Assembly: GCA_900541865.1 (NCBI GenBank)
Contig: UQLO01000005.1
Span: 19,177 to 83,176 of the forward strand
Origin: an uncultured Porphyromonadaceae bacterium
Lineage (GTDB): Bacteria; Bacteroidota; Bacteroidia; Bacteroidales; Muribaculaceae
Length of the DNA stretch: 64,000 bases
Direction: 5' to 3'
Shown: piece after piece, positions 2,542 through 54,548 of the stretch
Numbering within the stretch: the stretch's first letter is position 1
Layout: every line of letters starts with the position of its first letter
Notes under the pieces: model-generated
Database searches by the model: none
What the model saw: the letters and a program-made list of their open reading frames with translations, nothing else
Told to the model about the DNA's origin: nothing
Translations under genes and position numbers: made by a program

Positions 2542-3011
2542 GACTTTTTCATGGTTCCAACCAGCCGATAGAGGCCATAGACCTGGCCAAGGGCAGAAAG
2601 TTCAAGGATTTCGGCCGGGGGTTCTACACAACCCATCTGAGAGAGCAGGCGGAATTTTGGGCCGTTAGAATCGCCGAGCGTTATGGTGGAGTCCCTGCTG
2701 TGAGCGAATTTGAATTTAACCTGAAGGCGGCCTTGGAGGCCGGGCTGAAAGTTAAAGTGTTCGATTCGCCAGATAAGGAGTGGGCATTGTTTGTGATGGC
2801 CAACCGGCGGCAGAATGGCGAGGAATTCAATCATGATTTCGACATCGTAATCGGCCCGGTGGCCGACGACAGGATGGCCCGTCTCTTTGGCCTTTACGAT
2901 ATGGAGATTATCGAGCTCGATGCTGTTGTTGCCGGTTTGACTTACAAAGATCTCAACTCGCAGTATTTCTTTGCTACCGAAGAATCTCTCAAATACCTCG
3001 TGCGCATATGA
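2538..3011 (+). CDS. DUF3990 domain protein
   Basis: MRLFHGSNQPIEAIDLAKGRKFKDFGRGFYTTHLREQAEFWA matches the DUF3990 signature (HGS...DFGxGFY). ATG at 2538. Confidence 0.65.
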   Translation: MRLFHGSNQPIEAIDLAKGRKFKDFGRGFYTTHLREQAEFWAVRIAERYGGVPAVSEFEFNLKAALEAGLKVKVFDSPDKEWALFVMANRRQNGEEFNHDFDIVIGPVADDRMARLFGLYDMEIIELDAVVAGLTYKDLNSQYFFATEESLKYLVRI

Positions 3012-3250
3012 AAGAGCAAGACAATAATTTCGATTTTTTGGTTGAATACATCTCCGCGCGTTTGGCGGAATGGCTGATGCGCGACAAAAATGTAGGTATA
3101 GAAGAGGCTCTGCTTTTGATTCATAACTCCGAAACCTTCGAAAAACTGTGCGAAAGAGATACCGGACTCTACATTGAGAGCCCGGCCTTTGTCTATGGCA
3201 TTCTGAAAGAAGAATTCCGCAAGGGCACCATCCGCGGCCTCACGGAATAA
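3008..3250 (+). CDS. DUF3791 domain protein (usual partner of DUF3990)
   Basis: 80 aa, MKEQDNNFDFLVEYISARLAEW.... The start ATG overlaps the DUF3990 stop (ATGA). Size and context fit DUF3791. Confidence 0.5.
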   Translation: MKEQDNNFDFLVEYISARLAEWLMRDKNVGIEEALLLIHNSETFEKLCERDTGLYIESPAFVYGILKEEFRKGTIRGLTE

Positions 3251-3257
3251 TTCCCCC

Positions 3258-3818
3258 TTATTTCCGGAGGTGGTCCATCAGCTCCCAGGCGAACATGCGT
3301 TCGCCGACCTGACGGAAGCCTGCACTGTCGTAGAGTCGCCGGGCGCGAAGGTTGCTCTTGTCGCATAGCAGCCCCAAGGGCTTGCCTGCCATGTGCGACC
3401 GCTCCGACATGGCCTCTATAAGCGTGCGGGCTATGCCGCGGCCCCGGTACTGAGGCAACACCGAAAGGCTGTCGAGATAGTATTCGTCGGAGTCGCACTC
3501 GTCGGGCATCTTGCCGTCCATATCGCGGTCCAGAACCAACTTTACTTCTTCGAAGAATGCTTTGCGGAGCTCATGGAGGCGGCCGCCGTCGTAGGCTACT
3601 ATAACTCCGGCAGCCGAGCCGTCGTCGTCGACGGCCTTCAGCGCGTTGAGGTAGGAATACTGCGAGTCGGTGCGCGCCGCAAGACGGCTGAACAGGCGCA
3701 CTACGTCGTCGACGGTATGCTCGCCGGCAAATTCACGGGCCAACTCCGGTCCGATCGCATCGACTACGGCCTCTCCTATAAGGCGTGCATCGTCTATGGT
3801 GGCTGCTACTATTTTCAT
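3258..3818 (-). CDS. GNAT-family N-acetyltransferase
   Basis: MKIVAATIDDARLIGEAVVDAI...QYRGRGIARTLIEAM...RRLYDSAGF contains the acetyl-CoA binding motif Q/RxxGxG/A. The listed longer ORF would run into the tRNA terminator, so the MKIV start is preferred. Confidence 0.7.
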   Translation of the reverse strand: MKIVAATIDDARLIGEAVVDAIGPELAREFAGEHTVDDVVRLFSRLAARTDSQYSYLNALKAVDDDGSAAGVIVAYDGGRLHELRKAFFEEVKLVLDRDMDGKMPDECDSDEYYLDSLSVLPQYRGRGIARTLIEAMSERSHMAGKPLGLLCDKSNLRARRLYDSAGFRQVGERMFAWELMDHLRK

Positions 3819-3840
3819 GATAAAGAGATTGGAGTATAAC

Positions 3841-3869
3841 AAAAAAAGTGGAGAAAAACTCTCCACTTT
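3841..3869 (-). terminator. Rho-independent terminator downstream of tRNA-Gln
   Basis: Stem GTGGAGA/TCTCCAC with a 6-nt loop, followed on the minus strand by a T7 run. Confidence 0.6.
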
Positions 3870-3873
3870 AAAG

Positions 3874-3944
3874 TTGCCTTGGAAAGATTCGAACTCTCAC
3901 AGGCGGAACCAGAATCCGACGTGCTACCATTACACCACAAGGCA
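3874..3944 (-). tRNA. tRNA-Gln (anticodon CTG), CCA not encoded
   Basis: Manual fold. Acceptor stem TGCCTTG/CAAGGCA (7 bp), D-arm GTGT..GCAC, anticodon loop TTCTGGT, T-arm GAGAG-TTCGAAT-CTTTC, discriminator A. Confidence 0.65.
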
Positions 3945-4180
3945 ATATGTTTTGCTCGGCTTGCGGAGCGGCGGGGCTCCCTTGCTTTTGCGAGTGCAAA
4001 GTTAGGGCGAATTTTCGAAGCGTGCAAATTTTTACGCCACTTTTTTTAGAGAAAATGCAAACAGATGTGTTTTTCTTCCCGTTTGGCGAATAAATTGGCC
4101 GTTAAGGCTCCGAAAAGCAGCCCTGCTCCAAGCCGTACAATATGCGGCAGGGAGCAGGGTATGCTGAGAAGGCAAAAAAA

Positions 4181-4408
4181 TCAGCCGAACATATTGCCGA
4201 TTTTGCCCTTGATTTCGTCGATGACGCTTTCTTTGACGCCGTCGCCGTCGAGGTCGCCTATAAGGCCGGCGCCTTTCACTTTCTCTATAATCTCGGTGAT
4301 GGAGAGGTTCTGATGATCCTCGCCTTTGATGAGCTCGGTGACCTTCGATACGTCGAAGGAGTTGCCGAACTTCGATGTCAGTTCAGTCAGTATGCTCTGA
4401 ATGTCCAT
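4181..4408 (-). CDS. Small acidic hypothetical protein (75 aa)
   Basis: Clean ORF, co-directional with and 21 bp downstream of the DUF4332 gene. No recognisable motif. Confidence 0.4.
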   Translation of the reverse strand: MDIQSILTELTSKFGNSFDVSKVTELIKGEDHQNLSITEIIEKVKGAGLIGDLDGDGVKESVIDEIKGKIGNMFG

Positions 4409-8146: not shown

Positions 8147-8396
8147 TGTAGTTAATTGTTTGTGTTACTAAAAATTAAGTGCTCCTTAATTTCCCATCAC
8201 ACGGGATGCGCGGCGACTCCCTCGCGGGGCGCCCGCTAAAAAGCACTGCAAAGTTAAGCATTTCCTCCCACTCTCGCAAACATTCGCGCCCCGATTTCCA
8301 GTTTTTTTATTCCGCGCCCTCAAAAAAATGACAAAATGTCAACATCTGCGCACCCCGTCTATAGGTCGAGAAAAGTGTGCCGCGCAACGCCGCCGA

Positions 8397-8722
8397 GCTC
8401 TTTCGCATACGATATGGAGCGACGGCTTCAGCCGCCTCCGACCAGCTCTTTCGCAGGCGATATGGAGTGACGGCTTCAGCCGTCACGGCCCCGCCTCCAC
8501 CGCCCGGCCCCCGCCGACCCGCGCCGTCACCGCCTCGCCTCGCCGCCCTCCGGATTCCCGCAAAAAGTTACCTTCGCCCGGCCGCCACGGATTTCAGATT
8601 CCATATCGTCTGCGCAAACCATTGAGGTACAACTCCGTAGGAGTTGAATAAAGTTGCCAAGGGTGATAACCCCCGGACATATTAATCGCCAAATAATCAG
8701 CGACCCTGTAGGGGTCGACCCT
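8397..8722 (+). repeat. Direct repeat copy A (~325 bp) carrying two tandem 48-bp hairpin units, followed by a conserved ~200 bp hairpin-rich segment
   Basis: Unit ctctttcgcaggcgatatggag(c/t)gacggcttcagccgtc... holds the palindrome GACGGCT-TCA-GCCGTC. The remainder is about 85% identical to 10472-10795 (shared aactccgtaggagttgaataaag, gggtga(t/c)aacccc, atcagcgaccctgtaggggtcga). Confidence 0.8.
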
Positions 8723-8932
8723 TCGCGAATGGACGGGGGGCGCTGTTATTGTATGGGGCGGCATACCCGGGGCTGTCGCCCCGGGCTACATTCTTGAACC
8801 CTTACAGGGTTCTTTTTCATTAGTTTAGGTTGCTTTTTGAGGCGAATTCCGCCGGGGTTCTCGATTTGGAAACTGCAGAAAAAAAATCACCGCATCGGCG
8901 GATGCGGTGACTCTGAAGCGTTGTATGCGTGG

Positions 8933-10314
8933 TTAGTTCAGCGGTATGAGCGATATAATTTCGCGGTTGGGAGCGCTGAAGATGGTGTTGTGCTCGCCTG
9001 TGCGGAGGTCGACGCTGATGGCGACTTTGTAGCCGTCCGACCGGCGCGTACCCGTCAGCTGGGCGCTGGCGTGCTTATAGTCGACGGAATAGTCGGTGAT
9101 GTCGATTTCGTTGCCGATATTCAGGTCGGTCTGGCCGGTTGTAAGGGTCGTGGGGTCGAGCCATACCGCTTTGGAGGGTTTGCCGTCGTGGACGGTCAGG
9201 CCGTAGAAGCGGCCGTTGCAGATATTCTCGTTCCACAGCTCCATGTTGTCGGAATTGTCGAATTCGGTCGGTAGGTCTTCGAACTGACGAGTCTGCTTGT
9301 CGTAGACGAAGTAGGAGTTGGGGTTGCCCCAGTCTGAGTAGGTTTTGACAACTACTTTGTTGGCCGTCTCATACCACGACGAGGGGTTACTGTAATAGTC
9401 GCTCCAGTTCGGACTATTGGTGCCGATTACTTCTTCCGAGCTCTGGCCGTAGGAAGAACCTACGCTAATGAATTTCGACGGCTCGTCAGCCACAGCAGCG
9501 TACTGTATAATTCCATTTTCAAGGAGGATATATCCGCCGACAATACCATTGTTATTGAGATTTTCATAGCCGCCGTTGGGATATACCAGGCTCACAGTTT
9601 GTCTCATGCCTTTTTGATCGGTCGGCAGGTATGGACCGGAAATGGCTATCACGCCACGGTCCATAGCGAACAACCTGGGATAAATCGGGTATTCTATGGG
9701 TGCGCCATCGGTTGTCAGCTTCTCAAAGGTTCCTTCGAAGGAGGAAAGGGTTATGCGTCCGATGCAGACAGTTGTTAAGCTCGGGTTGAAGACTCCTAAA
9801 AGTCGGGAGGCACCGTCTTCGGTAAAGGCGCCCCGTTCTGAGTACGGATCGAACCTTTCCTCACCTATAACGGCACTGTAGATGAGACCATCGCTGCGAC
9901 GCACAAGAAGTACTTGCAGCTCAAAGGGTACATCCTCGACTTTGTCGCCGTCTTCATCGTAGTAGGAGCACCCTTCGAAGAACAGATAGTTCTCTGTGAG
10001 GTTTTTGACCCGGTAGGGCACTACCGACAGATTGGAAAGCGTTTCTCGGCCGTTCTCTTCGTTGACAAATACGCCGATGGCCGAGATATTGCCGTTGGCG
10101 TCGAGTTTGAATGTGCCCGCATGGGTCAGTTCGCCGTCTACTGCGCGCGATTCCACTGCGCCGAGGGTGGTGAGCATCTCGCAGTTCGACAGGTCGAATC
10201 GCGTTATAGTACTCTTACCCCCCCCAAAAATGGATCGTCTGATTTACAGGAACTTATGGTGCCGACAAACAGAGCGGTTGCCAGAGCCATGCCTGCAATT
10301 TTGAGCTTGGTCAT
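8933..10314 (-). pseudogene. Lipoprotein gene split by a G8 homopolymer. Signal peptide plus lipobox (10314-10218) is out of frame with the 414-aa body (10177-8933); a phase-variable OFF state or a frameshift.
   Basis: ATG at 10314 encodes MTKLKIAGMALATALFVGTISSCKSDDPFLGG, then hits TAA just after the G8 tract (plus-strand C8 at 10218-10225). The body frame is open from 10243 (…IFGGGKSTITRFDLSNCEMLTTLGAV…). The frame offset is 2, so G9 or G6 restores a single lipoprotein ORF. Confidence 0.6.
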
Positions 10315-10471
10315 ATTAAGGTTGTTGTTTGGTGATAATGTTTTTTCTTCGATATCTTAAGCAGTAATACAAAATTACTCATTTTCAACCAATCTCCCAA
10401 AAAATAAATCCTAAAAAGTGAAAAAAAGTCGACAATCGGACAATCGGACAATTTTCGACGCCCCATACGTG

Positions 10472-10795
10472 TCTTTCGCAGGCGATATGGAGCGACGGCT
10501 TCAGCCGTCACCGCCCGGCTCTTTCGCAGGCGATATGGAGCGACGGCTTCAGCCGTCACCGCCCGGCTCTTTCGCAGGCGATATGGAGTGACGGCTTCAG
10601 CCGTCGCCGCCCCGCCTCGCCGCCCTCCGGATTCCCGCAAAAAGTTACCCTCGCTAGCCCGGCGCGGATTTCAAACCCCATATCGCCTGCGCAAACCATT
10701 GACGCACAACTCCGTAGGAGTTGAATAAAGTAGCCGGGGGTGACAACCCCTGGATCAATTAACCTCTTGATAATCAGCGACCCTGTAGGGGTCGA
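10472..10795 (+). repeat. Direct repeat copy B (~325 bp) with three tandem 48-bp hairpin units
   Basis: Three near-identical 48-bp units (10472-10615), then the same conserved segment as copy A. A spurious ORF (10311-10640) with the TAEAVAPYRLRKSRAV periodicity arises from these repeats. Confidence 0.8.
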
Positions 10796-52797: not shown

Positions 52798-52929
52798 GGC
52801 GGTGGTGTTTTATGTTCTACAAAGATAACAATTTTCCGCCGACGCAGCAAATGTCTTAACAAAATTTGTAAGAGTGTAGAATTAAAAGCCTTAAATACAC
52901 ATAATTATAGTTAAACATTGTTAATAAAC

Positions 52930-52970
52930 GGGGGGGGGTAATTTTAAGCCGCGCCTAAACGCTATATTTG
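52930..52970 (+). promoter_or_regulatory. Candidate promoter with a G9 homopolymer (52930-52938) upstream of a TATATTTG -7 box (52963-52970)
   Basis: The -7 box matches TAnnTTTG. The G9 tract sits in the -33 / UP-element region. Confidence 0.35.
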
Positions 52971-53009
52971 CCACAGAATATGTCTTTAATACAAACCGAA
53001 GTCAATCAT

Positions 53010-54548
53010 ATGAAAGCGAAAATTCTACTTCTGGCGGCTGCTCTGTGGTCCTTCGCGACCCAAGCTGCCGAGCCGGCGCTGATGCATAGCGCAGAAGCGC
53101 CCGCAGCGGCCGATATGCTCGTGGTCGACGAGGCCCCGGCCCGCGCATACTCCGACGCCGACTTCTCCGAATGGGAAACCTACGGCATGGTCTACGTCTA
53201 CAGCAACTTCGACATCAACGGCTTTTTGGAAGGGTATCGCCATGATGGCGAAGAAGCTCCGAATGCCGTCAAGGAACACTATGCCGAAGCTTTGGTACGA
53301 CACCTCAAAGCCGACCCGGACGTGATTCAGCTCCTCATTCCGGGTTTCCTCAACCTGGCCAACGTCAGCATCACCCTCGACCCGGTGACCATGATGATGA
53401 GCATGGACCGCACCACCACCAATCTGCCCGTCTACGAAGAATTGAAGTCCGCCTTCGGAACCGAGGCCCTCACTCTCTCCTGTGCTCAGATTTCCTACAC
53501 ACCCTCGCTCTGCCGACTAATCTTCTCCAATATCTTCCTTGAGGTTCGCGAAGCATATGGCATTCCTTTCACCGTCACCGTCACTCTTCCCGGCACCCCG
53601 GCGAACATGAGGATGGGATATTCGTGCGAAACGGCCCCGGCAGGTCATTCAACCCATGCCTACGATGAATTTGCCATAGATCTCACAGGCATAGACCACA
53701 TCAAATACTACACCACATCCGGCTCGTTCACCATCAACGACCTTCGCGCCTGCCTCACCGGCGAATTGAACACCGTGCAGACCAACTCCCGTATTTATGT
53801 GGGCTACTCCGAAGGCGCGGCAACTTATAATGTATGGAGCCTGTGCTTCGACGAGAACGACAAATATCTTGGCTTCTACTATGTTATATCCATCCAGAGC
53901 AACCGTGCTCCCGAAGGACAATGGGAAGAAGTCGGCAAAGCCATTTGGCACCATCCCTACAGCGACAGCTACGTAGTACATATATATAACGACGACAATG
54001 AGTACGTCGGGGCCGAGGAAGTTGTCTTCCCGGAAGAAGCTATGCAGTGGGAGGTGACCATGGAACGCCGCACCGACAGCGACCGCGAAATCTACCGCTT
54101 CGTCAACCCCTACGGCGCCGGCTGCGCCCTCAACGAAACCTGGTCCAACCTTATGGACCGCATGTACGGCATCGGTTATTGGAGCAATCTATACGACGAA
54201 AACGACAACTATTGGCTCGTGGTCGAAATGCCGGCCGCAGGCGGAAATGACTTCGTCGTTCCCTCGCGTCCAACCGGTGCGACCATAGCTCATTTCATCA
54301 ACACCTGGTTCCCGACGGAGTACGAGTCGGTGACTTTCGAGGACAACAAGCTGCGCCTCTACGCACCGCATTATTTGGATCGCGAGCTCCTCATCGAGCT
54401 GCCCGACATGGGAGGCCTCGAAGCTCCCGTGGTGAACATATCTGCACCGATTGAATACTTCAACCTGCAGGGAATACGCGTCGACAACCCCTCGGAGGGT
54501 ATATACATCCGCCGTCAGGGCGACCGCATCGAAAAAGTAAGACTCTAA
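53010..54548 (+). CDS. Secreted hypothetical protein with a T9SS C-terminal domain
   Basis: Signal peptide MKAKILLLAAALWSFATQAA. C-terminus ...FNLQGIRVDNPSEGIYIRRQGDRIEKVRL. Confidence 0.55.
   Translation: MKAKILLLAAALWSFATQAAEPALMHSAEAPAAADMLVVDEAPARAYSDADFSEWETYGMVYVYSNFDINGFLEGYRHDGEEAPNAVKEHYAEALVRHLKADPDVIQLLIPGFLNLANVSITLDPVTMMMSMDRTTTNLPVYEELKSAFGTEALTLSCAQISYTPSLCRLIFSNIFLEVREAYGIPFTVTVTLPGTPANMRMGYSCETAPAGHSTHAYDEFAIDLTGIDHIKYYTTSGSFTINDLRACLTGELNTVQTNSRIYVGYSEGAATYNVWSLCFDENDKYLGFYYVISIQSNRAPEGQWEEVGKAIWHHPYSDSYVVHIYNDDNEYVGAEEVVFPEEAMQWEVTMERRTDSDREIYRFVNPYGAGCALNETWSNLMDRMYGIGYWSNLYDENDNYWLVVEMPAAGGNDFVVPSRPTGATIAHFINTWFPTEYESVTFEDNKLRLYAPHYLDRELLIELPDMGGLEAPVVNISAPIEYFNLQGIRVDNPSEGIYIRRQGDRIEKVRL

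Follow-up and report, generated by a model that had tools for sequence, protein, structure and literature searches.

Poly-G/C contingency loci have been described in Campylobacter jejuni, Neisseria meningitidis (hmbR and hpuAB), and Haemophilus influenzae (PMC11868660, PMC8355987, PMC3786947). The locus that we analyze here is a split lipoprotein gene in a 64-kb stretch of DNA (the window, meaning the whole stretch at its full length). It resembles those loci in that the reading frame of a putative surface protein contains, in its 5' part, a G/C run in the range of 7 to 10 nt, where slips of one base would toggle the frame, and in that related strains differ in tract length, with all three frames represented. 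It differs from them in its host, a gut commensal of the Bacteroidales, and in that the tract encodes a Gly3 linker right after the lipoprotein anchor. The 64-kb window contains only two long G/C tracts. Homopolymer frameshifts have also been reported for glpK of Mycobacterium tuberculosis (10.1101/717272, PMC10334774), which has a comparable run (7 to 9 nt of G/C) in a GC-rich genome and reversible frameshifts detected by population genomics. However, glpK encodes a cytoplasmic metabolic enzyme, in another organism and under another selective pressure.

In Bacteroides, phase variation of capsules, the S-layer, and surface lipoproteins is driven by invertases through invertible promoters (PMC11868660, PMC12118408, PMC10939037). 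These inversion systems have the order, the niche, the surface targets, and a presumed escape from phages or immunity in common with the window locus, but here there are no inverted repeats around the promoter and no recombinase nearby, and the switch would be a frameshift caused by slippage. For gut Bacteroidales in general, nearly all phase variation described so far is DNA inversion. The searchable literature gave no specific report of repeat-mediated phase variation in Muribaculaceae, Bacteroidales, or Bacteroides, an absence that is not proof. Slippage as a mechanism is well known; judging from the literature searched, what would be new is its occurrence in the Muribaculaceae/Bacteroidales, where published phase variation is inversion-based. 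We consider it quite likely that the locus is a slipped-strand (simple-sequence-repeat) contingency locus that was recorded in its off state.

A lipoprotein reading frame broken at a G8 tract

The gene occupies positions 8933 to 10314 of the window, on the minus strand, and is made up as follows.

10370..10377, minus strand: predicted -7 promoter box of the Bacteroidota type, TAATTTTG, read from the sequence; the start codon follows about 56 nt downstream.
10246..10314, minus strand: start codon and lipoprotein signal peptide MTKLKIAGMALATALFVGTISSC, with the lipobox I-S-S-C and Cys23, read from the sequence.
10231..10245, minus strand: residues +2 to +6 after the Cys, K-S-D-D-P, an acidic motif that resembles the Bacteroidota lipoprotein export signal (a resemblance only).
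10218..10225, minus strand: G8 homopolymer (C8 on the plus strand), the candidate switch, in frame (on) as G9 or G6 and off as G8; read directly, with orthologous G7, G8, or G9 tracts in L002, L003, L005, L008, and L010 to L016.
10204..10206, minus strand: TAA stop that closes the 36-aa leader open reading frame (ORF) in the G8 (off) state, from the ORF reading.
8933..10217, minus strand: lipoprotein body in another frame, including the stop codon at 8935-8933; a predicted all-beta propeller, from the ORF, an alignment to 14 homologues, and an AlphaFold model.
8873..8914, minus strand: intrinsic-terminator-like hairpin and T-run about 20 nt past the stop codon, with a 14-pair stem (8914-8883) followed by the T-run.

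An earlier note on this DNA had described a lipobox peptide that starts at the ATG at 10314 and ends just past the G8 run, a large ORF that is open in another frame from 10243, and a fusion of the two by one additional G or by two fewer. All of this proved exact. The leader ORF has 36 codons, begins with the ATG at 10314-10312, reads MTKLKIAGMALATALFVGTISSC KSDDPFLGGVRVL* on the minus strand, carries the lipobox Cys as residue 23 (codon TGT, 10248-10246), and ends at the stop codon at 10206-10204. In the body frame, no stop codon interrupts the stretch between 10243 and the terminal one at 8935-8933. A gain of one G (G9) or a loss of two (G6) results in a single ORF of 460 aa, and G8 leaves the 36-aa leader, so that a single repeat unit is enough to decide between the two. 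The start of the leader, MTKLK-IAGMALATALFVGT-ISSC, is predicted to be a lipoprotein signal peptide: it fits a basic n-region (with two Lys), a hydrophobic core, and the lipobox pattern [LVI][ASTVI][GAS]C, and it is conserved in the orthologues.

The tract lies within codons 30 to 32 of the repaired ORF and is an uninterrupted mononucleotide repeat within the usual bound of at least about 7 nt. Read in frame, the run encodes a Gly-Gly-Gly linker (GGG GGG GGT) just past the anchor Cys and the acidic motif. The comparison with orthologues that the earlier note had proposed as a check showed that intact single ORFs exist and that they match the G9-repaired junction. The 460-aa repaired protein aligns end to end with them, and its sequence ...CKSDDPFLGGGKSTITRFDLSNCEMLTTLG corresponds to GG[GS]K-TI[TA]RFDLANG over the junction (...CKSDDPFLGGGKSTITRFDLSN... 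in the G9 version of the window, against ...CESDEFGGGKTIARFDLAN... and ...CESDDLIGGSKTITRFDLAN... in intact homologues). ORF callers give the body as a 414-aa protein that starts at position 10177, with an internal ATG. The orthologues do not share this Met but have Ala or another position aligned with it, and the product would lack a signal peptide; the annotated 414-aa protein is therefore a gene-calling artefact.

The consensus of the Bacteroides -7 promoter box is TAnnTTTG. A TAATTTTG or TAAATTTG box also stands upstream of the orthologues in L003, L007, and L010; a sigma-70 promoter scan is uninformative for Bacteroidota. With the -7 box before the gene and the hairpin and T-run after its stop codon, the gene would be monocistronic and looks expressible.

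Tract length in related species

The repaired protein has 20 homologues in a collection of 5.8 billion proteins. The intact ones are 449 to 468 aa long and have a signal peptide, and several others were called from an internal Met, as in the window. We read the tract lengths directly from the DNA of the fetched homologues. At least five lineages of Muribaculaceae have the tract, in differing states, and its codon position is the same in all of them.

Window species (the window and L001): G8, off (on would be G9).
Closest orthologue, 61% identity (L002/L019): G9, off (on would be G8).
Species B, 48% identity (metagenome-assembled genome [MAG] MGBC152050): G7, off, in L003 and L008; G8, on, in L011.
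Species A, 47% identity (MGBC104416): G7, off, in L012; G8, on, in L005, L013, L014, and L015; G9, off, in L010.
A further lineage (L016): G9, off.
Species E (L004, L006, L007, L017, and L018): GGAGGAAGT, interrupted, always in frame.

In species E, the linker codons are GGA GGA AGT (L004, L006, and L007), and a distant member of the family (L022) encodes Gly-Gly-Gly as GGC GGA GGT. These alternative codons indicate that the homopolymer is a feature of the DNA and is not dictated by the protein. Species E also has a tandem duplication of the gene (3001-4353 and 4540-5889 in L006; about 1460-4347 in L007), and the N-terminal regions of the copies are identical.

A scan of GTDB genomes, which did not include the window species, returned only four loci, and a pattern scan of metagenomes also returned only four, one of which represents a new lineage. 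A second assembly of the window species (L001, the MEGAHIT-style contig k141_204865) also has G8. The two assemblies, which may share reads, differ in a single 48-nt repeat unit and at one further position. The protein collection holds no 460-aa variant of the window species, where the P0001 cluster has a single member. All off alleles are annotated as N-terminally truncated cytoplasmic proteins.

Clusters of proteins at 90% identity contain members that differ at the N terminus only. When contigs were grouped into haplotypes by identical protein core sequence, four core haplotypes of species A were each found in two or three tract states, one of them in all three. The contig counts for this species were about 115 on, 325 off (+1), and 218 off (-1), although these contigs are not independent samples and many may derive from related mouse colonies. 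Species B has two haplotypes, each found both on and off, and in this species L003 (G7) and L011 (G8), which come from different samples, have 0 substitutions in 1,800 bp and differ solely in the tract. Such repeat-number polymorphism and homoplasy are seen in two sister species, and the window species shows only G8, in two assemblies. The presence of the same haplotypes in several tract states indicates recurrent mutation and not a single inherited lesion. As far as assembled sequences can tell, G7, G8, and G9 on otherwise identical genes are the population signature of slipped-strand phase variation. The homopolymer phase-variation reading put forward in the earlier note thus gains support from the conserved position of the poly-G tract and from the occurrence of all three frames on identical genes in two sister species.

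The window has a GC content of 58%, and G/C runs are strongly depleted in it: there are 45 runs of 5 nt, 7 of 6 nt, none of 7 nt, 1 of 8 nt, and 1 of 9 nt. By extrapolation of a decay of about 0.19-fold per base, about 0.3 runs of at least 8 nt would be expected, compared to 2 observed, an excess that is only modest evidence when taken alone. GGG is a rare Gly codon in the window, with only 11.7% of the total, and GGG-GGG accounts for 1 of the 86 Gly-Gly dicodons. The tract has been retained at the orthologous position across lineages in which synonymous sites are saturated (dS, 0.6 to 1.7). In our reading of these alignments, it is this comparative conservation, and not the chance of a given run length, that is decisive.

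Selection on the gene and alternative explanations

Within species A, dN/dS is about 0.08, and this includes a pair of alleles that are both off (L012 with G7 and L010 with G9; 23 synonymous and 7 nonsynonymous differences). Substitution patterns of this kind indicate that the gene is under purifying selection though most assemblies show it off. Maintenance by selection despite off states, as in a contingency locus, is seen both in dN/dS and in the intact promoter, signal peptide, and terminator. Between the window and L002, which are also both off, dN/dS is 0.41, above the value of the sister species and below 1, and the two share 24 of their first 30 residues, compared to 61% identity in the body. 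The value of 0.41 could mean that constraint is relaxed in this sub-lineage or that diversifying selection acts on a surface protein.

A relaxed constraint is also what would be expected of a true pseudogene, in which the frameshift is a fixed inactivating mutation of the lineage and the gene is heading to decay. Both members of the sub-clade are out of frame (G8 in the window and G9 in L002), their dN/dS is higher than in the sister species, and the direct repeats of about 330 nt that flank the gene could delete it. However, we consider a pseudogene unlikely. The body of 414 codons has neither a stop nor a second frameshift, and the start codon, signal peptide, promoter box, and terminator are likewise intact. 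Measured against the on length of each, the window is off by -1 and L002 by +1, and off states reached through different tract lengths are not a shared inherited lesion. The tract is uninterrupted, so that one slip repairs the frame. Instead of the further lesions and the dN/dS near 1 that mark a pseudogene, we found an intact body and values of 0.08 to 0.41. The earlier note had named a pseudogene as one alternative; it is contradicted by the intact body and by the purifying selection in species A, and it keeps some standing for the window genome itself, which may carry a locked-off allele.

The other alternative of the earlier note was a sequencing or assembly error, in which a homopolymer miscall gives G8 in place of a true G9 and the gene is simply intact. 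Indel errors classically occur in homopolymers, and the two assemblies of the window species are the only ones and perhaps come from the same reads. Against this, G8 is also present in k141_204865, which differs from the window elsewhere, and the sister species show each tract length in tens to hundreds of assemblies (NCBI MAGs, ENA, and Logan). Rare random errors would not recur in this way over different pipelines, which speaks against the error explanation for the sister species. The source assembly and ERZ27290391 are of the Illumina type. For the window genome it still has a small chance, and overall we regard it as quite improbable. Even if G8 were wrong here, the locus would stay a variable tract, and either an assembly error or a lineage-specific locked-off allele in the window genome, both of which are possible, would leave the type of locus unchanged.

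Long homopolymers can cause transcriptional slippage, which is established for A/T runs. Programmed recoding, with the out-of-frame arrangement as the normal one and the full-length protein made through RNA polymerase slippage or ribosomal frameshifting on the G run, could draw on this property and might allow leaky expression from off alleles, but it is very improbable here: it predicts one conserved out-of-frame arrangement with one direction of shift in all orthologues, whereas in-frame alleles are common, +1 and -1 off states occur within one species, one lineage has GGAGGAAGT instead of the tract and is simply in frame, and no stimulatory structure or conserved slippery heptamer was identified at the tract.

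How the tract could switch the protein

If the locus is a contingency locus, the G run would gain or lose one G by replication slippage. In the context of the window, G9 (or G6) would give the full anchored propeller lipoprotein of about 460 aa, G8 or G7 would give the 36-aa leader and no anchored protein, and G10 would give a shorter leader. The off state leaves the tract intact, so that one slip would restore the frame; the change would therefore be reversible, and a population would always be a mix of on and off cells. We infer the switching in the window's own species, and its rate, from the relatives, because only G8 (off) was seen there, in two assemblies. Such a mix could serve as bet-hedging, most plausibly against an antibody or a phage that recognizes the protein. 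In one species from the mouse gut, the gene is off in about 83% of the assemblies. This strong bias in public mouse gut assemblies suggests that selection often acts against the protein, for instance through IgA or through phages that use it as a receptor, and the purifying selection suggests that it is needed at other times.

Muribaculaceae are a dominant family in the mouse gut. A lipoprotein family that is variable over hundreds of public assemblies is therefore a candidate antigen or receptor for IgA- or phage-driven selection in mouse models. If a conserved lipoprotein family is switched by repeat slippage, this would be an additional class of variation, one that is routinely lost because MAG annotation usually dismisses it as a "frameshifted pseudogene" or an "assembly error." To our knowledge, PhaseFinder-type tools detect inversions only. 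A further warning from this locus is that 5'-truncated gene calls beside G/C runs in these genomes need to be read again.

The encoded protein

Scans of the repaired protein against Pfam and NCBIfam gave no match, and a profile search of 1.84 billion cluster representatives found only 141 relatives; this is a small, uncharacterized family. Its named members are Muribaculaceae MAGs, and the ribosomal protein L25 of the window is 93% identical to that of a Muribaculaceae MAG. In the AlphaFold model, the body has a pLDDT of about 75 to 93 and matches beta-propellers, so that an all-beta propeller is predicted, with a resemblance that is generic for this fold. Surface-exposed beta-propeller lipoproteins of the BtuG/XusB type are known from Bacteroides (PMC6143338; PDB 9hqe and 8p97). 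The window protein shares only the general propeller fold with them, as it has no family match and none of the loci examined has a TonB-dependent transporter gene adjoining the lipoprotein gene.

The residues after the Cys are C-K-S-D-D in the window and align with C-[EKN]-S-D-[DE] in the orthologues. Lipoprotein export signals of Bacteroidota are acidic and drive surface exposure; B. thetaiotaomicron has CS(D/E)2, and C. canimorsus has K-(D/E)2 (PMC6222051). The resemblance to this motif makes an exposure of the lipoprotein on the surface plausible.

The neighbors of the gene in the window encode a flavodoxin, an acyl-ACP thioesterase, ribosomal protein L25, and Pth, and gene neighborhoods are not conserved between orthologues. 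Some orthologues adjoin type IX secretion genes, with PorV downstream in species A (L012 to L015) and with SprA upstream and DUF5723 downstream in L002. This may be a coincidence or a functional hint.

A distant paralogue with 31% identity (L009, 3057-3065; MAG MGBC114452) has a G9 run inside its signal peptide, just before the lipobox (...VLVLGGGTSC), and is in frame in that assembly. Other distant members begin with MQGGGLTSC or MLGGGTSC and may be truncated calls at similar tracts. This suggests that poly-G tracts were repeatedly recruited in this lipoprotein family.

Repeats around the gene and a second tract

An element of about 330 nt is present on both sides of the lipoprotein gene (8390-8718 and 10463-10795), as direct copies that are 82 to 91% identical. 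It is built in part of 48-nt tandem units that contain the hairpin GACGGCTTCAGCCGTC. Two of these units are downstream of the gene and three are upstream, where L001 lacks one, and the unit is found nowhere else in the window. The repeats could be the trace of an event that inserted the gene between those for flavodoxin and L25, or they could allow its deletion by recombination. We also considered an inversion switch, but these large repeats are direct and not inverted, and they enclose the whole gene and its promoter, so they cannot form an invertible promoter. The Rfam Acido-Lenti-1 RNA motif (RF01687) matches at 8766-8811 (+) and 10708-10753 (-), one with 39.6 bits (gathering threshold, 37) and the other with 30 bits, below the threshold. 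Of the two, the weaker falls within the upstream repeat copy and the stronger just beyond the downstream one. We know of no function for Acido-Lenti-1 and of no description of it from Bacteroidota.

The only other long G/C run in the window is a G9 tract at 52930-52938 (+), in intergenic DNA (context, 52915-53012). The -7-like box TATATTTG follows it at a distance of 25 nt, and the ATG at 53010, about 72 nt downstream of the tract, starts a secreted protein of 512 aa whose C terminus resembles a type IX secretion sorting domain. A species with an only 51% identical protein retains the context of the tract, GTTAATAAAC-(G9)-...-CTATATTTGCC, in the form GTTAATAAAC-C-(G8) (compared loci, L020 1421-1429 and L021 12-19). 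From its position, this may be a phase-variable tract located in a promoter.

Together with the G9 in the signal peptide of L009 and the lineage whose tract is "locked" on by an interruption, the second tract in its conserved promoter context leads us to a wider proposal, which we make tentatively and hold a little short of probable. Poly-G contingency loci may exist as a set in the Muribaculaceae, and hence in at least some of the gut Bacteroidales, where they would be located at the 5' ends or in the promoters of genes whose products are secreted or exposed on the surface. They would form a second, repeat-based layer of phase variation beside the invertible promoters, with a strong bias to the off state in the mouse gut that suggests ongoing selection by IgA or phages. 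The second tract is G9 in both assemblies of the window species.
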